A DNA stretch of 58,978 bases, filler included, from Ferroacidibacillus organovorans (lineage in GTDB: Bacteria > Bacillota > Bacilli > Alicyclobacillales > SLC66), in NCBI RefSeq assembly GCF_001642725.1. It is 7 parts of 7 records of this genome, joined end to end, with 100 filler letters (N's around TTAATTAATTAA, not from the genome) between each part and the next. Parts side by side here need not be neighbours in the genome. Positions count along the whole stretch, not along the records: positions 8,869 to 17,613 come from NZ_LSUQ01000083.1; 6 more parts are not named here. One strand, 5' to 3'. Positions within the stretch are counted from its first letter, which is position 1; every line of letters starts with the position of its first letter. The notes beneath the pieces were generated by a model, which saw only the letters and a list, made by a program, of their open reading frames with translations, was not told the DNA's origin and searched no databases. A program made the position numbers and the translations under genes. This document shows positions 8,769 through 17,713 of the stretch, in pieces.

Positions 8769-8868
8769 NNNNNNNNNNNNNNNNNNNNNNNNNNNNNNNN
8801 NNNNNNNNNNNNTTAATTAATTAANNNNNNNNNNNNNNNNNNNNNNNNNNNNNNNNNNNNNNNNNNNN
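8769..8868. other. Artificial contig spacer
   Basis: N-run, TTAATTAATTAA (stops in all six frames), N-run; 100 nt. Confidence 0.99.
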
Positions 8869-8988
8869 AGCGAGGGACTCATGGTTGGATTCCGAGCGGC
8901 TTGGGGTTATGCGGCAGGGACGCTTGGGCTCACACTGCTTTTGTTCGCATGGCTCGCTATAAAAGTCCGTTTGAGACAGAGGGTATGA
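8869..8988 (+). CDS. C-terminal fragment of a membrane protein (possibly MFS), 5'-truncated
   Basis: Manual translation: SEGLMVGFRAAWGYAAGTLGLTLLLFAWLAIKVRLRQRV*. Confidence 0.5.
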   Translation, partial: SEGLMVGFRAAWGYAAGTLGLTLLLFAWLAIKVRLRQRV

Positions 8989-9454
8989 AGACTTAAACAT
9001 CATTTCTTCTCGTACACAGAAAGGAAGTTGTCAGCCCTTTTCCCGCGGACACAGCATGATATTAAGTCAAGAAAGTAGACACGATAAACAGAGACGATTG
9101 ATCATTTTAAATCCTTGGTTAGGTCGATCCACCTTCTGTGGTTTCGACACAGAATTCATTTTCTAAAATATCCTGATCCAGATGTCCAGGACAAGAACAT
9201 CCCTTAACATTCTCACCACATTCTTCGTTAGAAAGTCCGCGCTTCGTACATCCTTTCATCGTGATGCGGTGATACATAGCCAATCGACGAATGGATTTTC
9301 TAACGATTGTAAAAAACTTCGATTGAGTGCCCGGAGTGGACATGGATCCAGAGTTTGGCCCTATCGGAATCTCTCGGACGGTGGTGAGGGAATGTTATTT
9401 GAATGGGTGAGGCAGTCGTGGCTCGGATTATCGATCTATCACGGAACTGCAATT

Positions 9455-9895
9455 ATGAAGCCACTATGGATTGGGATCGCGTTTATCGCATTTGCCCTTG
9501 TGGCGGCGCGGTTTGACATTCGGGAACGGCGAATTCCAAACGTCCTGAACCTGTTTGGACTGGGGCTCTTTTTGGCGTTGCACTTCGGTGTTGGTTCGGG
9601 AGAAGAGGCGTTTTTCGCCTTCGTTTGCACCGGACTGCTGCTTCTCGTTCCGACGCTTCTTGGACTCTGGGGCCAGGGGAACTGGAAGATGGCCATGGTT
9701 TGCGGGCAGCACTCGGTGTGCTGCCCACGCTGTTCATATGGTGACTGGCGTTGCTCTTTGCCAAGGTCTATAGTACGGCGGTCAAAAAATACGTGGTTCG
9801 ATGGCTACCAACCGACACCAAGAAGGGGACTGCCCATAGTGGTTTTTGTCCTCGTGTCGACGATCCTCTTCTGTGCAGTGATGTCTTTATTCTGA
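9455..9895 (+). pseudogene. A24 prepilin peptidase (TadV/CpaA-like) pseudogene
   Basis: DIRERRIPN motif present; the GxGDxK motif reads GQGNWK. Frameshifts near 9705 and 9827, with TGA at 9742-9744 in the hydrophobic frame. Confidence 0.75.
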
Positions 9896-9927
9896 AAGTT
9901 AATAGCGCCCTGAAAGGGGGCCTCTTC

Positions 9928-10763
9928 ATTCGATTGCATGATGCGTCCAACTGATATCTGACCCTCCAGGCGCAGGAGGGGTATTCGCCCTATACAGTAA
10001 AGGCGTACCGGGTGCAGCATCACCAGTTGATAAAAGACATCGGGGACACGATCACGTCGGAACAACTGCGGGAACATCTGCAGCAGCACATGCATTTGAA
10101 AGCGAGCAGTCTCGGGTATAATGTACGGGCCATCATGAGTTTGTTCAATTCAAGTGGTTGGTGGAAGAGGATCTCCTCGTGCGCAATCCGACCATGAAGT
10201 TGAAGGAACCGAAGCTTGGAAAACGTGTGCCAAAGGCACTCACCATCGATGAACTAGAAATGTTGCGGGATTCTTGCACCAGTGTCTTGGAGCATGCGCT
10301 CGTGGAATTTTTCTTCGCCACGGGATGTCGGGTGGGGGATATTCACAAACTCGACCGCAGTGCAATTGATTGGCAGCGTGGCTGTGTGAATGTGATAGGG
10401 AAAGGAAACAAAGAACGAGAGGTGTACTTCGGCTCGAAGGCCCGCATATGGCTTCAACGGTATTTGAATCATCGTGGTGATAAGGATGCGGCGCTGTTTG
10501 TAACCGAGAGGAAACCGCACCGGATATCGATTCATCAGATTGAGTATATTTTCAATCGGATCGCGAATCGATCCGACTTGCAAACCAAGATCAGCCCCCA
10601 CAAGATTCGCCATACCCTCGCAACCGTATTGCTCAATCAGGGCGCACCCCTCGTTGCCGTGCAGTCTATTTTGGGCCATGAGAAACCGGAGACCACGCAG
10701 TTGTACGCATCCCTCAGTGGCACCGTACGCCAACAAGCATATCAGCGATATTTCGTGCAGTGA
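9928..10763 (+). pseudogene. Tyrosine recombinase / integrase (XerD-like fold), disrupted in the N-terminal domain
   Basis: Catalytic residues intact: TGCR, GKGNKER, HKIRH, LGH, TTQLY. The N-terminal part (QEGYSPYTVKAY...) has ATT after the RBS, TGA at 9952-9954 and a TTCAA duplication at 10144-10153. Confidence 0.88.
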
Positions 10764-10770
10764 TGAATGT

Positions 10771-10799
10771 CTGCAAAACCATTCGTCGCCGTGTATACT
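10771..10799 (+). promoter_or_regulatory. Putative sigma-A promoter pointing into the gene array
   Basis: CTGCAA-N17-TATACT directly after the integrase stop. Confidence 0.4.
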
Positions 10800-10831
10800 G
10801 AGGGAAACGATGCTAGGAGAGCGCGGGAAAA

Positions 10832-10935
10832 CTGGCATTGAGCGATCCGCACACGGGGACTTTTATGCAGATATATTGCATGATCATGCGAACCGAGCGA
10901 GTCGGCTTACGCCGATTTCGGGCAGTTTAGTGCAG
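10832..10935. repeat. Array hairpin site 1 (integrase-proximal)
   Basis: GCATTGAGC/GTTTAGTGC outer arms; centred core TGCATGATCATGCG at 10877-10890. Confidence 0.65.
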
Positions 10936-11025
10936 CACGGACAACGAAAATTTGGAGCGCAAACAGGATATATAAATAAAACGACGAATTCAATTAATGG
11001 AATACGCAATGTCAGGAGGGTTTAT

Positions 11026-11136
11026 GTGCAAGTACCTTCGATTTTTGATGCGGTTGTTATCCTAGGGGGAAGTCTGCCCTTATTCGGGTATTCAATTGCA
11101 TACAAAGATCAGGGAATCGTACAGCGTTCTGACTAG
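11026..11136 (+). CDS. 36-aa small ORF (leader peptide or truncated gene)
   Basis: AGGAGG RBS and GTG start; MQVPSIFDAVVILGGSLPLFGYSIAYKDQGIVQRSD. Confidence 0.4.
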   Translation: MQVPSIFDAVVILGGSLPLFGYSIAYKDQGIVQRSD

Positions 11137-11170
11137 CTACGCCAGTTAAGGCGTGTTGAAATCGGAATAC

Positions 11171-11203
11171 AAAGCACCTGATCACGTGGTCAGGTGCTTT
11201 TTT
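11171..11203 (+). terminator. Intrinsic terminator / attenuator 34 nt before the MFS start
   Basis: AAAGCACCTGAT-loop-GTCAGGTGCTTT followed by a T-run. Confidence 0.75.
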
Positions 11204-11236
11204 GCGTTGAAAAATGACCGAAGGGAAGATCATTCA

Positions 11237-12478
11237 ATGAAATTCAATACAACAATCTTGAAAAACAGAAACTTCTTATCTTACTGGAGCGGTGGACTAA
11301 TTTCAGAACTTGGAGATGCCATGTTTTTGCTGGCACTCAATTGGATGGTGGTTGAGAAAACAGGTTCGGGATTAATTTTAGGAACCATCATGGCGTGTAT
11401 TTCACTGCCTCAAATTTTACTCGTCACGATTGGTGGTGTGGTTGCAGATCGCTTGAATCCGAAATGGGTCATGATTGCATCGGATGCTGTACGCGGACTG
11501 ATAATGGCTTTTCTGCTGGTGATGAGCTTTCGCGGTGTGGTGCCGATTTGGACGTTGTTTGTGATGGCAATTGTGTATGGCTGCATGGATGCGGCATTTT
11601 TCCCTGCACAATCGGCATTTCAACAAAGACTTGTTTCTTCAGAGCAATACACGCAGTCCTTCGGACTCTTGATGATTGGTTTTCAGGCGGCAGCGATTGC
11701 AGGACCTGTTATTGGCGGTGCGTTGATTTCCAAATGGAGTTATCGACTTGTCATTGCAGCCAACGGACTTTCATTTATTTGTTCGATTCTGCTTCTGCTC
11801 TTGGTTAAACCGATTCCCATCGATTCCGATGACGAAGAAAAAGACAAATTATCATTTTCATCCGACATCCAAGTCGGAATTCGATATGTACTGAAGAATC
11901 ATCTGATCTTAACGACATCCTTAAGTGCGTTCTTGGTCAATGCGTGCGTGCAAGCCACATTCATTGCAATGCCGTTCTTGGCAAAACAAGCTCACCTGGG
12001 TGCACAAGGATTTGGCTTGATGAATATGGGCATTGGAATCGGTGGTGCTCTCGCAGCTCTCTTTTTTGCTTTCATACGGATTCAAAAGCCAACACCAAAA
12101 ATGACCTTGCTTGCTTGTTTCGTCGAAGGGTTTGCGTTTCTTGGACTCGTCGTTGCAAGGGACCTATGGTTGCTTATTGGTACGATGCTCGTCATTGGCA
12201 TTATGGAAGCTGTCGTGAACACAATTGCTCCAAGTGTAAATCAAAAAATCATTCCGCCACAACTGATTGGGCGAGTCATTAGTTTTATGATTGTTTTAAT
12301 GTCGGGATCGGAACCGCTGGCACGTGCATTTTCAGGATGGATGATTCAATGGTCAGGAGTAACGGTTTTGTTAATTTGTACGGGCATTCTTGAAATTGTC
12401 GTAGCTGTGATCGGCTATTTCATGCCTGTTGTCCGAAATTATGGCTTGGAACAGCCCCCGATCGAATCCTATGATTGA
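11237..12478 (+). CDS. MFS transporter, DHA3 / Mef-like efflux type
   Basis: About 12 TM segments; LKNRNF...SELGD, GGVVADRLNPKWVMIASD and GRV motifs. Start reassigned to MKFNTT. Confidence 0.88.
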   Translation: MKFNTTILKNRNFLSYWSGGLISELGDAMFLLALNWMVVEKTGSGLILGTIMACISLPQILLVTIGGVVADRLNPKWVMIASDAVRGLIMAFLLVMSFRGVVPIWTLFVMAIVYGCMDAAFFPAQSAFQQRLVSSEQYTQSFGLLMIGFQAAAIAGPVIGGALISKWSYRLVIAANGLSFICSILLLLLVKPIPIDSDDEEKDKLSFSSDIQVGIRYVLKNHLILTTSLSAFLVNACVQATFIAMPFLAKQAHLGAQGFGLMNMGIGIGGALAALFFAFIRIQKPTPKMTLLACFVEGFAFLGLVVARDLWLLIGTMLVIGIMEAVVNTIAPSVNQKIIPPQLIGRVISFMIVLMSGSEPLARAFSGWMIQWSGVTVLLICTGILEIVVAVIGYFMPVVRNYGLEQPPIESYD

Positions 12479-12496
12479 TGAAAATCACAGCACAGG

Positions 12497-12522
12497 GGAC
12501 ATCCTTTGGGGTGTCCTGTTTT
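12497..12522 (+). terminator. Intrinsic terminator of the MFS gene
   Basis: GGACATCC-TTTG-GGGTGTCC-TGTTTT. Confidence 0.7.
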
Positions 12523-12562
12523 ACTTTCTATGGTTTATATCCTCAAATGTCGAGTAGCAAAT

Positions 12563-12670
12563 CTATTGCAGTATGGTGCGAAACTGCAGTAGCCGTCTCC
12601 GGTTGACGGGTGTATGATTATACAGGCACGCATGGAGACGCTTACTGCCGTTTCGAGCAATGTTCAATAG
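12563..12670. repeat. Array hairpin site 2
   Basis: CTATTG..CGAAAC.GCAGTA..CGTCTCC / GGAGACG..TACTGC.GTTTCG..CAATAG arms; core TGTATGATTATACA at 12611-12624. Confidence 0.85.
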
Positions 12671-12721
12671 TGATTCACTGAACGTAATCGGTATATTTAG
12701 TTGAATTCGGAGGGGAAATGA

Positions 12722-13468
12722 ATGTCTACAAAGGTAGCTATAATTACAGACATCCATGGCAACAGCCCCGCATTACAGGCTGTGTTGAAGGACATCGACA
12801 GTCAGTCTGACATTGAGCACATCTACTGCTTGGGAGATATGGTGGCAATCGGACCTGACACTGATGAGGTCTTGGTTGCATTGTTCGAGCGAGAAGATGT
12901 ATCCATGATCACCGGAAACCATGAAGATGCGGTGTTGGCAATTTTTCGAGGTCAAGAACCAGCGTCCCGTGACGAGGAGCGAGCACACCACGAGTGGATT
13001 GTCGAGAACACCGATGAAGCCTTACTTCGAAGCCTGTTGGACTTGCCCCGTTCATTAAGAATTGAACACGAAGAGAAGAGCCTGTTATTGGTCCACTACC
13101 ACTTAGATGCCGCTGACAACTTCCTGCCAATTGACCGAGACCCTTCAGCGGATGAGCTGGATACAATCTACAATGGAGACAAGGCTGACATAGTGTGCTT
13201 TGGACATCATCATCCCGTTCACTTCTTCAAGTCTGCCACAAGAACATATCTGAATCCTGGCTCATTAGGGTGTTGTGACCGCCCTGTAGCTCGATACGCC
13301 ATTCTGGACATCGACTCGCAGGATATTGCAGTTGAAATGAAAGAAATCCCATACGATAATCGCCAGTTTCTTTTGTCGTATGAGCAATTAGGGGTACCTG
13401 CAAGGGATTTCCTGCTCATGGCGTTCCACGGCAATCAGCACATGGGTATCCATGAAGAAGAGTCATAA
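12722..13468 (+). CDS. Metallophosphoesterase (calcineurin-like, YfcE family)
   Basis: DIHGN, LGD, GNHE, GHHH and NPGS motifs. Confidence 0.92.
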   Translation: MSTKVAIITDIHGNSPALQAVLKDIDSQSDIEHIYCLGDMVAIGPDTDEVLVALFEREDVSMITGNHEDAVLAIFRGQEPASRDEERAHHEWIVENTDEALLRSLLDLPRSLRIEHEEKSLLLVHYHLDAADNFLPIDRDPSADELDTIYNGDKADIVCFGHHHPVHFFKSATRTYLNPGSLGCCDRPVARYAILDIDSQDIAVEMKEIPYDNRQFLLSYEQLGVPARDFLLMAFHGNQHMGIHEEES

Positions 13469-13551
13469 TGCTTGGGTCGCCTCTTTGTGTATGAACATGC
13501 ATGTGTGTTGAGGAAGTCCTTATGGCGATCTTGGGCAGGAAAGTTGAAGAA
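13435..13551. repeat. Array hairpin site 3 (left arm overlaps the upstream gene end)
   Basis: GTCATAA/TTATGGC and CCTC/GAGG arms; core TGTATGAACATGCA at 13488-13501. Right end CTTATGGCGATCTTGGGCAG resembles site 1. Confidence 0.72.
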
Positions 13552-13578
13552 CGAATCAAATTAAATCGGGTGATGAAA

Positions 13579-14073
13579 ATGGGCATTAGCAGCAAGATAG
13601 AAGTGGCTCCGCCATTGACTCAAGATGATCAGGAATGGCTCAGGACCTTGTGGCTGAGTGAGTGGGGCGGAGAAACAATGGTATCCAAAGGTAAAACCCA
13701 TTACTTTCAGGATTTAGACGCCGTGATTGCTTGGGCTGATGATGTTCGAGTTGGGGCGGCAACCTATAATCTTGAGAATGATGGATGCGAACTGATGAGT
13801 ATAAATGCCATAGTGGAAGGTTTAGGCGCAGGGAGTGCCCTGATTTCGGCAGTCGAACAAGCGGTACATAAGGTTGGAGTAGGTCGCATTTGGCTTATCA
13901 CTTCGAATGATAACTTGGATGCATTGAGATTTTATCAACGACGTGGATACCGAATAACTGCCGTATATCCCGACGCAATTGACGAGGCAAGGAAGCTCAA
14001 ACCGACGATTCCACAAATCGGGTATTACGAAATCCCAATTCACGATGAGGTTGAACTTGAAAAATTTCTTTAA
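13579..14073 (+). CDS. GNAT family N-acetyltransferase
   Basis: GLGAGSALI and NDNLDALRFYQRRGY motifs. Start placed downstream of hairpin site 3. Confidence 0.9.
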   Translation: MGISSKIEVAPPLTQDDQEWLRTLWLSEWGGETMVSKGKTHYFQDLDAVIAWADDVRVGAATYNLENDGCELMSINAIVEGLGAGSALISAVEQAVHKVGVGRIWLITSNDNLDALRFYQRRGYRITAVYPDAIDEARKLKPTIPQIGYYEIPIHDEVELEKFL

Positions 14074-14075
14074 GT

Positions 14076-14189
14076 CTTCTTCAGGTAACGGGTGCACATC
14101 TGCAATAGCGGTGTGTCTCGGCTTGTGTATGAATATACAGAACCTATGCGTGACACCTTGCGGCAGATAAGAGCAGTAAGGATACAGAA
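14076..14189. repeat. Array hairpin site 4
   Basis: TTCT/AGAA, ATCTGC/GCAGAT and GGTGT/ACACC arms; core TGTATGAATATACA at 14126-14139. Confidence 0.8.
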
Positions 14190-14217
14190 TATTACAAACG
14201 AATGGAGAGTGGTTTAA

Positions 14218-14688
14218 ATGCTAGCTACTGAGCTTGCTATAATTAATTTTCGAGAGGTTCGTCGCAGAAGCATAATTGTATGGAGGAGTGTTCCTTCAGA
14301 TTTCCTAAAATGGAAGCCTGACGACTCAGCTCTAACAATTGGTGAAGTCATCCGTCATGCATGGTCTACTCAGAAATATTACTACGAGTCGATTAAACTA
14401 GGACAATCTGCGCCAGTAACACATGACGAGTTCGATGACATTCCAGTAACGAGTATCGAAGAGGAAATTTCACTGTCAGTACCATACTTCGAGGATTTCC
14501 TAAACTACGTCCGGCAATTACCAAATAACGAATTGGAAAGTCGAATGATTGACCGTTCGGACGTTGGATATATACGACCATTAGGAGATTTTCTTTGTCG
14601 AATTGCGTACCACGAGTCCATTCACACTGGTCAGTTACTTCAATACCTTCGGTCTGCTGGTCTAGACCGTCCAGATATTTGGGACTAG
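14218..14688 (+). CDS. DinB/YfiT family protein
   Basis: WKP...TIGEVIRH and YHESIHTGQLLQYLR His motifs. Confidence 0.9.
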   Translation: MLATELAIINFREVRRRSIIVWRSVPSDFLKWKPDDSALTIGEVIRHAWSTQKYYYESIKLGQSAPVTHDEFDDIPVTSIEEEISLSVPYFEDFLNYVRQLPNNELESRMIDRSDVGYIRPLGDFLCRIAYHESIHTGQLLQYLRSAGLDRPDIWD

Positions 14689-14918
14689 ACAGCTTCCCGC
14701 ATTTTATCAGTTTCACTTGTGTCATTACGGTTGCAATAAGGCTGTTCACGTGGCTAGAAAAAAGGGAGGAGTCTATTGGATATCAAAATGTGAATTCTGG
14801 GAATCAAGATTTATCGATGGCTGACGATGTAGTTGACTCTATAGCTGATATCCCCATGGATTTTCTTGATTTACTGTGACCCTTAGCCCGAGTTGTTGTA
14901 TGGAAGGAGGAACGCCTT

Positions 14919-15559
14919 TTGATTGTAGCTTTTTGGGATTTGGATGGAACTATTCAAGACAGCGAGCCATTAGCAAGAGAAGGAACTTGTTACGGATTTC
15001 AACAGATACTTGGTAGAGAACCAACAGAACAAGAATTTGCTCAACTTATCGGGCGTCCTGTACCCATTGTTTACAAAGAATGGTTCGATGATGAGTTAGC
15101 ATTAAAAATTCTTGATACAGGAACACGTTTTTACCAAGAACACTCGATCAAATTCGTTGTTACCCTGGAATTCCAGATTTGCTCACTCTGATGAAACTGA
15201 GAGGTCATAAAATGGGAATTGTTTCGTCAAAGTGGCGATTCCATGTGATTAGTGAGCTGCAATCAAAGAAGCTGGATATGTTCTTTGACGTTGTCGTAGC
15301 CCAAGAGGACACATCACGACACAAGCCATACCCTGATCCACTTCTTCTTGCAGCGCGCAAATTGCAAGGAAATCCAGCAGATTGCGTATACATTGGCGAT
15401 CAACCATCAGACGTTCAGTCAGCAAGAGCAGCAGGTATGATCAACATCGCTGCACTGTGGGGAGACGGGAAGTTTGAACGTATACAAACAGCGTCTCCAA
15501 ATATCATGGTTCAAAATCCAGTGGAGGTTCTCAATTTCGTATCACAACTAAAGAGATAG
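14919..15559 (+). pseudogene. HAD-family phosphatase (PpaX/Gph-like), frameshifted
   Basis: DLDGT in the first ORF; KPYPDP and GDQPSD in the second. A one-base loss near 15143 joins them (..EH|LDQIRCYPGIPDLL..). Confidence 0.82.
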
Positions 15560-15621
15560 ATTTAACTGAGTTGCCATTGAATTAAAGATAAATGTAATAA
15601 ACTTACCATAGGGAGAGCCCG

Positions 15622-16278
15622 ATGATGGCAATTTACTCGACAATTTTATTTGATTTGGATGGAACGCTTACAGATCCTAAGGAGGGAATCACCAAATCAG
15701 CCCAATATGCCTTGTCTAGACTTGGGATCGATGAACCTGACCTCGAAGAGCTTACATCGTTTATCGGACCGCCTTTGCATGTCAGTTTTGAACAGTTCTA
15801 TGGTCTCGGTCCCTCAGAAGTAGAACGAGCCGTGATGTATTATCGACAAAATTATAAGGAAAGCGGGATATATGAGAACGTAATTTATGACGGAATTCCA
15901 GAGTTACTTAAGTTTTTAAAGGATAAATCTAAGCAGTTAGTTATAGCCACTTCAAAGCTTACTGTATTTGCGGAGCAGATACTCGTTCATTTTGAAATTG
16001 ATCAGTACTTCGACCATGTTGTTGGAAGTAATCTTGATGGGTCTCGGTCTAACAAGGCGGAGATAGTTGAGCATGCTATAAGAAAATTCAACGGTTCTCC
16101 GAAGTCTGATTTCATTATGGTCGGAGACCGTAAACATGACATTGTTGGGGCAAATGCGAATGGCATTGATTCAATTGGTGTTAAGTATGGGTATGGTTCA
16201 CAGGAAGAGCTTGTTCAGGCAAACGCAACCCATTTGGTAGATACTGTCGATGAACTATTTAATCTCCTGTCGCCGTGA
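15622..16278 (+). CDS. HAD-family hydrolase (phosphoglycolate phosphatase / 5'-nucleotidase-like)
   Basis: FDLDGTLTD, ATSK and GDRKHD motifs. Confidence 0.92.
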   Translation: MMAIYSTILFDLDGTLTDPKEGITKSAQYALSRLGIDEPDLEELTSFIGPPLHVSFEQFYGLGPSEVERAVMYYRQNYKESGIYENVIYDGIPELLKFLKDKSKQLVIATSKLTVFAEQILVHFEIDQYFDHVVGSNLDGSRSNKAEIVEHAIRKFNGSPKSDFIMVGDRKHDIVGANANGIDSIGVKYGYGSQEELVQANATHLVDTVDELFNLLSP

Positions 16279-16280
16279 GA

Positions 16281-16399
16281 TTCTTATACAGGTAACGGGC
16301 GCGAAAATCTCAGAAGGCCATAGGTTTGCAGTTGCATGAAGATGCGTTGTGGACCTCTTGGTTGAGGAAAAATGAAGGCAAACATTTAGTGTTCAAGAA
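16281..16399. repeat. Array hairpin site 5
   Basis: TTCTTATACA/TGTTCAAGAA and AGGTTTGCAG/TTGTGGACCT arms; core TGCATGAAGATGCG at 16333-16346. CAGGTAACGGG is shared with site 4. Confidence 0.8.
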
Positions 16400-16412
16400 T
16401 GTAAAAAAATAC

Positions 16413-16443
16413 TTGATCCTGACGCAATGTCAGGTTGTAGGAT
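16413..16443 (+). promoter_or_regulatory. MerR-type autoregulated promoter
   Basis: TTGATC-N19-TAGGAT with dyad CCTGAC-GCAAT-GTCAGG in the long spacer. Confidence 0.85.
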
Positions 16444-16481
16444 GAATTTGCCGGCAATATCAATGTGCACGAAATGAGGGG

Positions 16482-17234
16482 ATGATGGCGGAAAAAGAAC
16501 GATGGAAAGTGGGGGAATTGGCGAAGCTGACGGGCATTACGATTCGGGCGCTGCACCATTACGACCAGATCGGGTTGCTTGTTCCTTTTTTGCACTCTGG
16601 CGCTGGTCACAGACTGTATTCGGGAAAGGACATCGCTCGTCTGCAACAAATCATCTCCCTAAAGCAGTTGGGTTTTTCACTGGACGAAATCGGGGCTTTG
16701 CTCGATAACCCCAGTTTTCGTCCGGACAAAGCAATTCGAATGCAGTTGGATCGATTGGTTCAACAAATCCGAATTCAGGAAGACTTGCGGAGCCGACTGG
16801 AGCGTCTATATGAGTTGGTTCAAGCTCAACGAGAACTGACTGGAGAGGAATGGATCAAAATCATCGAGGTGATGAAAATGACGGAGAAGTATTTTACTCC
16901 AGAGCAGATGGAGAAACTCAAGAAACAAGGGGAACTTCTGGGAACCGAGAAAATCAAAGAGGTTGAGAACGAATGGCCAAGCCTGATTGCCAACGTACGC
17001 GTAGAACTGAAAAAGGGGACGCCTCCTGATAGTCCTGAGGTACAACTGTTGGCCAAGCGGTGGAAAGAACTCGTCAACCTCTTTACAGGCGGTGATTCTA
17101 GCATTACGCGATCCGCTGAACAATATTACGCGGAGAACCCGGACCGAGCAGCGGAATTCGGCATGGATAAGGAGTTGTGGCAGTACATCTCGAAGGCCAT
17201 GGCCACCAGTTTAGTGACTGATGACCCCAAGTAA
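16482..17234 (+). CDS. MerR-family regulator with TipAS-like C-terminal domain (Mta/TipA/SkgA type)
   Basis: [43 protein letters not shown] in the C-terminal domain. Confidence 0.9.
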
Positions 17235-17256
17235 GATGTAGGATAATTCTACAACA

Positions 17257-17298
17257 GGCCCTTGGTTCTTCACTTCCCAGAACCAGGGGCTCCTTTTT
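17257..17298 (+). terminator. Intrinsic terminator after the MerR gene
   Basis: GGCCCTTGGTTCT...AGAACCAGGGGCT followed by CCTTTTT. Confidence 0.75.
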
Positions 17299-17380
17299 AT
17301 GCTGTTTCCCACATATCAAATACTTTCCGCCACCTGGGTGTATACTAACGGTAAATCCATCCAGAGAGGATGATTCACCC

Positions 17381-17613
17381 GTGAACTCCAACAACGGCGG
17401 CCATAAATTCACCAACCGCCTCATCCACGAGAAATCCCCATACCTGCTTCAGCACGCCCATAACCCGGTCGACTGGTACCCTTGGTGCGACGAGGCGTTC
17501 CGCATCGCTCGCAGGTTCAATCGTCCCATTCTTTTGTCCATCGGCTACTCGTAGCCCTGCGGGGCTACGAGTGGCAATATACGGTAATGGAGTAATATAT
17601 GGACCTGTCACTG
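17381..17613 (+). CDS. yyaL: YyaL / DUF255 thioredoxin-domain protein, 5' part, interrupted by a 51-nt coding gap (17552-17602) and cut by the contig end
   Basis: Missing from the ORF track. GTG start gives [57 protein letters not shown], then TAG. ACC TGT CAC TG (TCHW) resumes in frame at 17603. Confidence 0.88.
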
Positions 17614-17713
17614 NNNNNNNNNNNNNNNNNNNNNNNNNNNNNNNNNNNNNNNNNNNNTTAATTAATTAANNNNNNNNNNNNNNNNNNNNNNNNNNNNNNN
17701 NNNNNNNNNNNNN
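17614..17713. other. Artificial contig spacer
   Basis: N-TTAATTAATTAA-N. Confidence 0.99.

Follow-up and report, generated by a model that had tools for sequence, protein, structure and literature searches.

A 58,978-nt stretch of DNA (the window) of Ferroacidibacillus organovorans, an acid-loving Gram-positive relative of Alicyclobacillus, contains, at positions 9,928 to 17,298, a row of accessory genes behind a tyrosine recombinase gene that, to judge from the comparisons below, is probably one array of a gene-cassette system that resembles integrons, belongs to Bacillota of the Alicyclobacillaceae type and is served by a dedicated Xer-like recombinase. By the defining tests the array is not an integron; going by the accessible part of its published description, the nearest known system is rAID-1 of Bacteroidales. 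The first-pass annotation had proposed a gene-capture platform analogous to, and distinct from, integrons, and this core idea was supported by the switch of cassettes at the motif GGGCAG, by cassettes shared between arrays, by the linkage of recombinase and sites and by a recombinase that is not of the IntI type. The window joins 7 contig pieces through 100-base linkers (8769-8868, 17614-17713 and four more places; 17614-17713 consists of N runs around TTAATTAATTAA), and gene neighbours across the joins are not neighbours in the genome. The draft genome (G000) has 98 contigs and 3.03 Mb, and the array lies on contig C83, which is window 8869-17613.

The boundaries of the cassettes were read from pairs of arrays that are alike on one side of a site. 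The segment C83:557-2059, comprising the upstream open reading frame (ORF), the recombinase and the first site, is 96.8% identical to C61:15527-14025; the identity stops inside the first site and the arrays beyond are unrelated. The homology of four platform pairs (C83/C61, C83/L011, L012/L026 and L014/L017; L011 is a locus of a metagenome-assembled genome (MAG) with an intact, 96% identical recombinase) stops at position ~106-110 of the site profile, which is GGGCAG, and the sequences, set side by side, split immediately past ...TTTCGGGCAG. In the window this GGGCAG lies 157-162 nt past the recombinase stop, and the platform homology ends there in the four comparisons. Two duplicated cassettes in L014 (A. 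ferrooxydans) have neighbours that switch exactly after GGGCAG, including at one degenerate site missed by the profile, and the first cassette of L011 also stands inside the C72 array (89.6% over 479 nt) with the same starting point. C83, L011 and L027 have no cassette DNA in common, although all three begin with the recombinase on the left and close with yyaL on the right. In at least 7 independent comparisons, the homology broke off precisely at a single 6-nt core. At the level of alignments, these comparisons place strand exchange within or at the 3' core's invariant GGGCAG, the DNA on its left travelling with the upstream gene and the DNA on its right with the next cassette. Since the homology breaks exactly at GGGCAG, the units are recombination-bounded cassettes.

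The gene row described previously after the tyrosine recombinase, all on one strand (MFS, metallophosphoesterase, GNAT, DinB, two HADs and MerR/TipAS), agreed with the ORFs and the Pfam matches, and the accessory genes are indeed AT-richer, with a GC of 41-47% over 11-17 kb against ~55% in most other 1-kb windows. The features are as follows.

9182..9895, + strand: upstream ORF of 237 aa, type IV leader peptidase family (PF01478, 35 bits)
9929..10763, + strand: Xer-like tyrosine recombinase, pseudogene (PF00589, 126 bits)
10769..10797, + strand: putative promoter-like element read from the sequence (CTGCAA-17 nt-TATACT), directed towards the array from the interval that separates the recombinase stop from site 1
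10867..10939, + strand: site 1, platform (attI-like) half-site (profile positions 50-126, E 5e-8), with the palindrome at 10877-10890 and the 3' core spacer GGGCAG at 10920-10925, lacking a 5' core
10926..12660, + strand: cassette 1, MFS transporter (ORF ~11238-12478; PF07690, 133 bits), ending in site 2
12552-12660, right arm to 12674, + strand: site 2 (E 5e-15; spacer variant GAGCAA)
12661..13538, + strand: cassette 2, metallophosphoesterase (12722-13468; PF12850, 78 bits), ending in site 3
13422-13538, + strand: site 3, overlapping the stop codon (E 8e-11; GGGCAG 13533-13538)
13539..14176, + strand: cassette 3, GNAT acetyltransferase (ends 14073; PF00583, 42 bits), ending in site 4
14068-14176, + strand: site 4 (E 2e-18; spacer GAGCAG 14171-14176)
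14177..16381, + strand: cassette 4 or fused cassettes, by Pfam DinB (14218-14688), HAD (14919-15559, frameshifted) and HAD (15622-16278), ending in site 5
16275 to ~16381, + strand: site 5 (E 2e-8, profile positions 7-88; degenerate 3' core AGGCAA 16376-16381)
16482-17234, + strand: last gene, MerR/TipAS regulator (PF13411, 67 bits; PF07739, 53 bits)
17381..17613, + strand: right flank, truncated 5' copy of yyaL, a DUF255 thioredoxin-domain protein (PF03190 on the C86 copy)

All five sites reported before match one family profile, at coordinates within ~15 nt of those claimed; sites 4 and 5 begin 2-3 nt past the upstream stop, site 3 overlaps it, and the boundaries 14689-14918 and 15560-15621, which had been flagged as lacking a clear site, have no profile match. 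A 14-nt central motif, TGYATGAnnATRCR, is present in all five, TGTAT/ATACA alternating with TGCAT/ATGCR. The genome has 10 occurrences of it where 0.7 would be expected; the array sites account for five, and at least two more (C2, C72) are family members. The iterated nhmmer profile found 28 copies at E<1e-3 in the draft genome, all five array sites included, and they form same-strand groups on 11 contigs (C2, C3, C8, C21, C25, C41, C59, C61, C72, C83 and C86), interspersed with ORFs of the same orientation. Among the 24 sites with a 5' part, 22 follow the end of a co-oriented ORF (median gap 39.5 nt), and among the 25 with a 3' core, 23 precede the start of one (median 77 nt). The cargo is typical accessory cargo: among 44 ORFs scanned with Pfam over ten arrays there are at least 8 GNATs, two MFS transporters and, among others, DinB, NUDIX, glyoxalase, APH, isochorismatase, RidA, methyltransferase, epimerase, DUF2785 and caspase-like proteins.

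The site, of ~125 bp, consists of a 5' core, a conserved palindrome TGTATGAwTATRCA midway and a 3' core. The cores are of the form ~14-6-14, dyad-symmetric in consensus and direct repeats of each other; the 5' core reads about gTTcTTgaactAAC-GGGgGC-aaATcTgcAAgAAg (written also as cTTgTTGaaCtAAC-GGGtGC-gaAAtcTGCAAtAG) and the 3' core cTTaTTGCGCttTC-GGGCAG-gAaAGytCAATAAg. A logo of 58 junctions, to which the next figures also refer, has the central G, C and A of GGGCAG invariant and conserved arm positions that mirror each other (TTnTKGCGCwwTC on the left, nAnAGnnCAATAA on the right), and the first base after GGGCAG varies (G 24, T 21, A 7, C 6). The 59-base element was first described as two simple sites, a left-hand (LH) and a right-hand (RH) one, with the crossover in the right-hand one, and the layout of the sites found here bears a resemblance to it.

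The recombinase family is large, its listed full-length members being mostly of 278-283 aa, and intact 280-aa homologues are common, such as those at L014:9764-10606 in A. ferrooxydans and at G001:1168427-1169266 in A. fastidiosus; relatives were found in Sulfobacillus, in species of Alicyclobacillus and in uncultured Bacillota. Against the XerC, XerD and XerA models, the intact homologue P0001 (280 aa) scored 194, 178 and 176 bits, below each curated cut-off; on the IntI model TIGR02249 (cut-off 265) it scored 90 bits and the window copy 42 + 27 bits. Only ~13 residues stand opposite TIGR02249 positions 180-232, which we take to be the location of the IntI-specific insertion, and ~40 IntI positions are absent; together with the length of 280 aa this agrees with the earlier impression that the enzyme lacks the insertion. 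By sequence the nearest solved relative is XerD, and the IntI4 structure aligns over residues 197-264 only. The window copy is broken, as suspected, by several lesions relative to the intact homologue (alignment with L011:3221-4063): the ATG start is lost, an in-frame TGA stands at 9952-9954, 12 nt are deleted at 10044/10045 and 5 extra nt at ~10138-10148 shift the frame. Over the catalytic half (10158-10763) a frame of 201 aa stays open. The C61 copy has the same TGA and frameshift as the C83 copy. The dN/dS values are 0.08-0.12 in the catalytic halves of C83, C61 and L011, and the recombinase clade is under purifying selection; because these halves differ mostly at synonymous sites, the decay is recent. 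Metagenome run X5 contains a near-identical contig with an extra GTGT at 10224 and a more divergent one that keeps the 12 nt missing at 10044, so different populations carry different lesions. The genome also has two ordinary Xer genes, on C80 and C10.

Sites and recombinase were then compared in their distribution. In the GTDB family of the window, sites occur in 18 of 19 genomes and the recombinase clade in 8 of 19, and 8 of the 11 recombinase-clade matches have a site within 5 kb; in a class-wide sample of 141 genomes, sites were found in 4 and the clade in 6. In 8 of 32 related loci the recombinase is followed, within 600 nt, by a profile match. By eye, GGGCAG stands 70-160 nt past the recombinase stop in 5 of the 23 loci inspected, and a one- or two-base variant (GGGCGC, GGACAG, GGTCAG, GGGGGC or GGGCCG) in at least 7 more, including the Sulfobacillus-type L023 and L024. 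Three complete Alicyclobacillus genomes have 131, 74 and 68 profile matches, and in A. fastidiosus, which has four copies of the recombinase, one of them intact, 72 of the 82 matches listed form 18 same-strand clusters. The link between enzyme and sites is drawn from these positions and would make the recombinase the enzyme of the system.

The loci differ in layout. In L012 and L026 of A. fastidiosus the recombinase lies between two inverted half-sites, with oppositely oriented arrays on either side (upstream minus-strand half-sites at L012:9494-9562 and L026:9476-9546), and in L014 and L017 it lies inside a single co-oriented array; platform architecture therefore varies. A Trueperaceae homologue (~59% identical) in L036 is flanked by 34-nt direct repeats (9648-9681 and 11792-11825, 88% identical, 2.1 kb apart), which may delimit a small integrated element instead of an array. 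No repeat family was found beside Trueperaceae homologues (53-60% identical) and at the MAG locus L024.

A cassette consists of a short leader, usually one gene and the ~125-bp site. In the mechanism that we propose, a dedicated 280-aa Xer-like tyrosine recombinase lacking the IntI insertion would be encoded upstream and co-oriented, and the half-site with a GGGCAG-type core ~60-160 nt past its gene would serve as the platform insertion site. The enzyme would excise cassettes as circles via two direct 3' cores, and the circles would be re-inserted at the platform site or at the site of another cassette. It could also act in trans on arrays that have no adjacent recombinase, and the 5' core and the palindrome would be accessory elements.

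Several results weigh against such a system, either in this array or at large. In the sister species G004, three of the sites recur with unchanged spacing (874 and 634 nt) behind a recombinase that has four stops, and an independent metagenome run, X5, has the same order over 10172-16390; a supported joint that skips a cassette was not found in the contigs of four metagenome runs. Gene order fixed across strains, which the first-pass annotation regarded as contrary evidence, thus holds for this array in G004 and X5, while elsewhere conserved platforms carry different cassettes. Only 2 of the 19 family genomes have an intact recombinase although 18 have sites, G159 (21 sites) and G019 (45 sites) have no recombinase of the clade, and most arrays have none adjacent. 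In A. fastidiosus, among the matches listed, 6 of 28 places are within 30 kb of a recombinase copy. No profile arrays were found beside the 53-70% identical homologues in the Sulfobacillus-type and Trueperaceae loci. Taken one by one, the sites show little dyad symmetry (5.5 of 14 positions, compared with 3.3-4.2 in slid controls and 5.8 after random re-pairing), and it is therefore a property of the consensus and not of each site.

The wide spread of the sites and the rare or broken recombinase are like what is seen in integrons, with many clusters of attC sites lacking integrases (CALINs) and frequent loss of the integrase. Three other runs (X9, X10 and X13) cover the array partly, and their contigs are too short for the gaps to be read as cassette loss. 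Run X10 has one contig that joins 12631 back to 10903, at depth 4 and seen only in the table of inserted letters, which is too weak for a circle or a tandem copy. The dead recombinase, both on C83 and in the second copy on C61, and the unchanged order mark the window array as currently a static relic, a decayed example of its kind.

The foremost alternative, which we consider possible and clearly the lesser prospect, is that the system works through folded single-stranded sites as attC does, the two cores pairing with one another, the left arm of the 5' core with the right arm of the 3' core and so on, the spacers forming an unpaired bubble and the palindrome the tip. The arrangement would parallel the R''-spacer-L'' ... 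L'-spacer-R' of attC. Since each core is a dyad and repeats the other directly, the site as a whole, an imperfect inverted repeat of 120 nt, does resemble the long imperfect hairpin claimed earlier. Site 2 alone folds better than shuffled sequence (z -4.7); the other four gave z of -1.2 to +0.7 on the + strand, site 1 being a half-site only. Over 34 sites, folded with RNA energy parameters, the mean z was -0.66 (P = 0.002), and 60.2% of the cells of the proposed helices pair, against 32-42% when slid. However, only 3 of the 34 sites have a z below -2, column shuffles already pair at 57.6%, covariation is weak and RNAalifold found no consensus structure for the 34 sites. A model with circular cassettes fared no better, the 5' outer arm pairing with the start of its own cassette no better than with next or other cassettes (n=23, P=0.66). 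The description of the sites as hairpins conserved in structure and variable in sequence was not supported, since motifs are conserved in their sequence and their folding hardly exceeds that of shuffles. The recombinase, moreover, lacks the IntI insertion, which the accessible parts of two reports tie to the single-strand pathway (PMC4792948; PMC8138268). Weak folding and the missing insertion make recombination of duplex DNA somewhat more likely than that of folded single strands. In its most specific form, to which we would give a little less than an even chance, our proposal is of a native, IntI-independent cassette system of Alicyclobacillaceae and their relatives, in which a Xer-derived enzyme that lacks the insertion specific to single strands shuffles cassettes, dozens or more in each genome; it would act on duplex DNA at dyad-symmetric cores set in an attC-like layout of two simple sites.

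It is unlikely, in our estimate, that the sites are true recombination sites on which another enzyme acts, either host XerC/XerD, as for the pdif modules of Acinetobacter, or another recombinase, the adjacent gene being a passenger or a cassette. Many arrays, and the whole genomes of G159 and G019, do without a recombinase of the clade, the recombinase of L014 and L017 has co-oriented sites on both sides, two ordinary Xer genes are at hand and the 3' core has the arm-spacer-arm form of Xer-type sites. Against this, a GGGCAG-type half-site follows the recombinase stop at a short and similar distance in many species, the variation between arrays begins exactly at the platform half-site, eight of the eleven recombinase remnants lie within 5 kb of a site and the clade is under purifying selection.

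Still less probable, and disfavoured, is the view that the repeats are elements of the repetitive extragenic palindromic (REP), miniature inverted-repeat transposable element (MITE) or regulatory type which spread alone, so that the look of cassettes would be coincidental and no site-specific exchange would take place. The copies do occupy many chromosomal places (28 among the 82 matches listed in A. fastidiosus), and the conserved central palindrome could be an operator bound by a protein. Repeats scattered genome-wide and independent of the integrase had been named beforehand as a ground for rejecting capture, and most arrays in the complete genomes are indeed far from a recombinase; in the family of the window, the recombinase matches are mostly near a site. 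Runs of copies on the same strand as the genes (the 18 clusters of A. fastidiosus), breakpoints on the exact 6-nt core, conserved flanks with unrelated cargo and sites linked to a recombinase gene all speak against elements spreading alone.

A divergent classical integron (IntI plus attC) is the most improbable of these explanations, for although the general architecture, the 5' cores that often end in TAAC, some cassettes that begin with GTTA and PF13495 in some clade members would suit it, the intact homologue scores far better on XerC than on TIGR02249 and misses ~40 positions of the latter, the 58-junction logo has no RYYYAAC/GTTRRRY consensus, the recombinase is co-oriented with the array, and the tyrosine recombinase genes near the large A. 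mengziensis array are both Xer-like and below the IntI cut-off, with no IntI adjoining.

The integron-like cassette system with its Xer-like recombinase has much in common with integrons and CALINs (e.g., the VCR arrays of Vibrio cholerae): a tyrosine recombinase gene beside a platform site, rows of mostly single-gene, co-oriented and compositionally deviant cassettes, each ending in a species-typical site of ~120 bp, a site made of two simple sites and a central part with the crossover at a short invariant core at its 3' end, many arrays without a recombinase and frequent decay of the latter, and a cargo of GNAT, glyoxalase, DinB and NUDIX. Unlike in integrons, the Alicyclobacillaceae recombinase is Xer-like, of 280 aa, without the IntI insertion and under the IntI cut-off, and the central palindrome is conserved in sequence while folding is weak. 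Two further differences that had been pointed out were confirmed, namely that the recombinase is co-oriented with the array and that the sites lack RYYYAAC/GTTRRRY ends, their core being GGGCAG between arms of ~14 nt. The pdif sites of Acinetobacter plasmids are 28 bp long (11-6-11) and usually alternate in orientation, whereas the sites found here are ~125-bp composites (cores ~14-6-14) in direct orientation, in chromosomal arrays and with a dedicated adjacent paralogue. The pdif modules also use host XerC/XerD and are located on plasmids, without a dedicated recombinase or platform. What the two share, according to the accessible parts of the sources, is small accessory modules bounded by Xer-type arm-spacer-arm sites and shuffled between replicons (PMC6449649, PMC13141974).

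The rAID-1 arrays of Bacteroidales are described, in the accessible part of the report, as having a XerD-like recombinase, co-directional genes of low GC, integron-like intergenic repeats and large, variable arrays (Ross et al., 10.1101/471110). Measured against that description, the window array has a 5' XerD-like recombinase, at least two co-directional downstream genes, a lower GC and intergenic repeats. Among the published criteria, the same text also names an identity of 44% or more between the recombinase and the B. fragilis reference, and a cargo of immunity genes (10.1101/471110). As compared by description, the two differ in phylum and in cargo, which in rAID-1 consists of interbacterial-toxin immunity genes and here of general accessory enzymes and transporters; no immunity families were found among the 44 ORFs scanned with Pfam. 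Our literature search found no description of such a system in Alicyclobacillus or other Bacillota, and publications linking Alicyclobacillus with integrons made, in their titles and abstracts, incidental mentions only.

Integrons are the textbook gene-capture machine and are reported, in the literature as far as accessible, to be nearly absent from Gram-positive bacteria; the accessible part of the IntegronFinder 2.0 report gives a single complete integron in Firmicutes (PMC9024848). In the present family of Bacillota a genome can have as many as 45 integron-style cassette sites, and the three complete genomes of Alicyclobacillus have 68 to 131. This suggests that gene capture of the integron type exists in a bacterial group thought to be almost without it. 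Standard integron searches are not expected to detect these arrays, whose recombinase and sites both fall outside the models used. If the proposal is correct, surveys of mobile accessory genes would miss a class of platforms carrying transporter, acetyltransferase and phosphotransferase genes, and the system would be a living example of the postulated double-strand-acting ancestor of integrons or an independent reinvention. Should the Xer-like enzyme be the catalyst, cassette capture would need no IntI-specific domain, which bears on the evolution of integrons from Xer-type recombinases. The intact enzyme is kept in cultivable strains, e.g., A. ferrooxydans TC-34 and A. fastidiosus DSM 17978, and in such hosts, which are not pathogenic, the choice between duplex and folded strand and the roles of the second core and the palindrome could be studied at the bench.

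Some minor features of the array remain. The promoter-like element at 10769..10797 had no match in the tool's promoter scan; at the equivalent place, upstream of a GGGCAG-type core, eight related loci (L012-L018, L026) have TGG(T/C)AAAAT. The scan returned 8 promoter matches against 13.2 expected, none of them inside sites, and the idea that a promoter is rebuilt at each junction is therefore without support. An Rfam scan of the array region gave small-RNA matches at chance level only. Terminator-like hairpins were found by a terminator scan in cassette 1 (11171-11200 and 12496-12517), and a G+C-rich hairpin with a T run, read from the sequence, stands at ~17257-17296 after the MerR/TipAS gene, which has no following site. 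The first HAD gene is split by its frameshift into ORFs 14919-15191 and 15179-15559, and only the second half reaches the Pfam HAD_2 model. A non-genic segment of 116 nt between DinB and the first HAD gene (14770-14884; C83:5902-6016) is 94% identical to C61:12267-12152 in an otherwise unrelated array, and may be the remnant of a shared cassette end or of a small gene.

The right flank of the array is a truncated yyaL copy with a stop-containing insert of 51 nt (17552-17602), and C83 itself stops at ...ACCTGTCACTG; arrays on other contigs and in other genomes are closed by this flank too. The genome has one full-length yyaL (C54) and five truncated 5' copies, 75-92% alike, four of which close contigs with cassette arrays (C83, C86, C72 and C59) and the fifth of which is on C8. 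The places concerned are the end of C83, the start of C86, the end of C72, C59:10380-10680, C8:13457-13690, C68:2071 and C69:1-80. The truncated copies all stop at ...CTGTCACTG, and in contigs that continue, the next sequence is the final ~19 nt of the insert in inverted form. The vicinity includes serine recombinase genes, namely a large one (C69:5875-7581) and an ORF of 202 aa with a resolvase domain (C59:12375-12980), and the yyaL places are flanked by defence genes (DISARM-like, KAP NTPase, type I restriction-modification and STAND). Taken together, yyaL looks like a hot spot for the tandem integration of islands.

Every yyaL copy carries the insert, with its stops (TAG and TGA or TAA), between ...SIGYS and the TCHWCHVM active site (window 17552-17602; C54:12869, C8:13518, C59:10551, C72:11072, C86:65; L011:9460; loci L065-L076). 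The element is present in 10 of the 19 family genomes, and in full-length genes of 6 genomes from 5 genera it is exactly 54 nt long and in frame. A 14-bp hairpin, with a compensatory change between copies, spans the last sense codon TCG and the TAG, and a TCG or CCG codon stands just before the point where yyaL resumes. This layout recalls, by analogy, the translational bypass of T4 gene 60, and the insert could matter in its own right.

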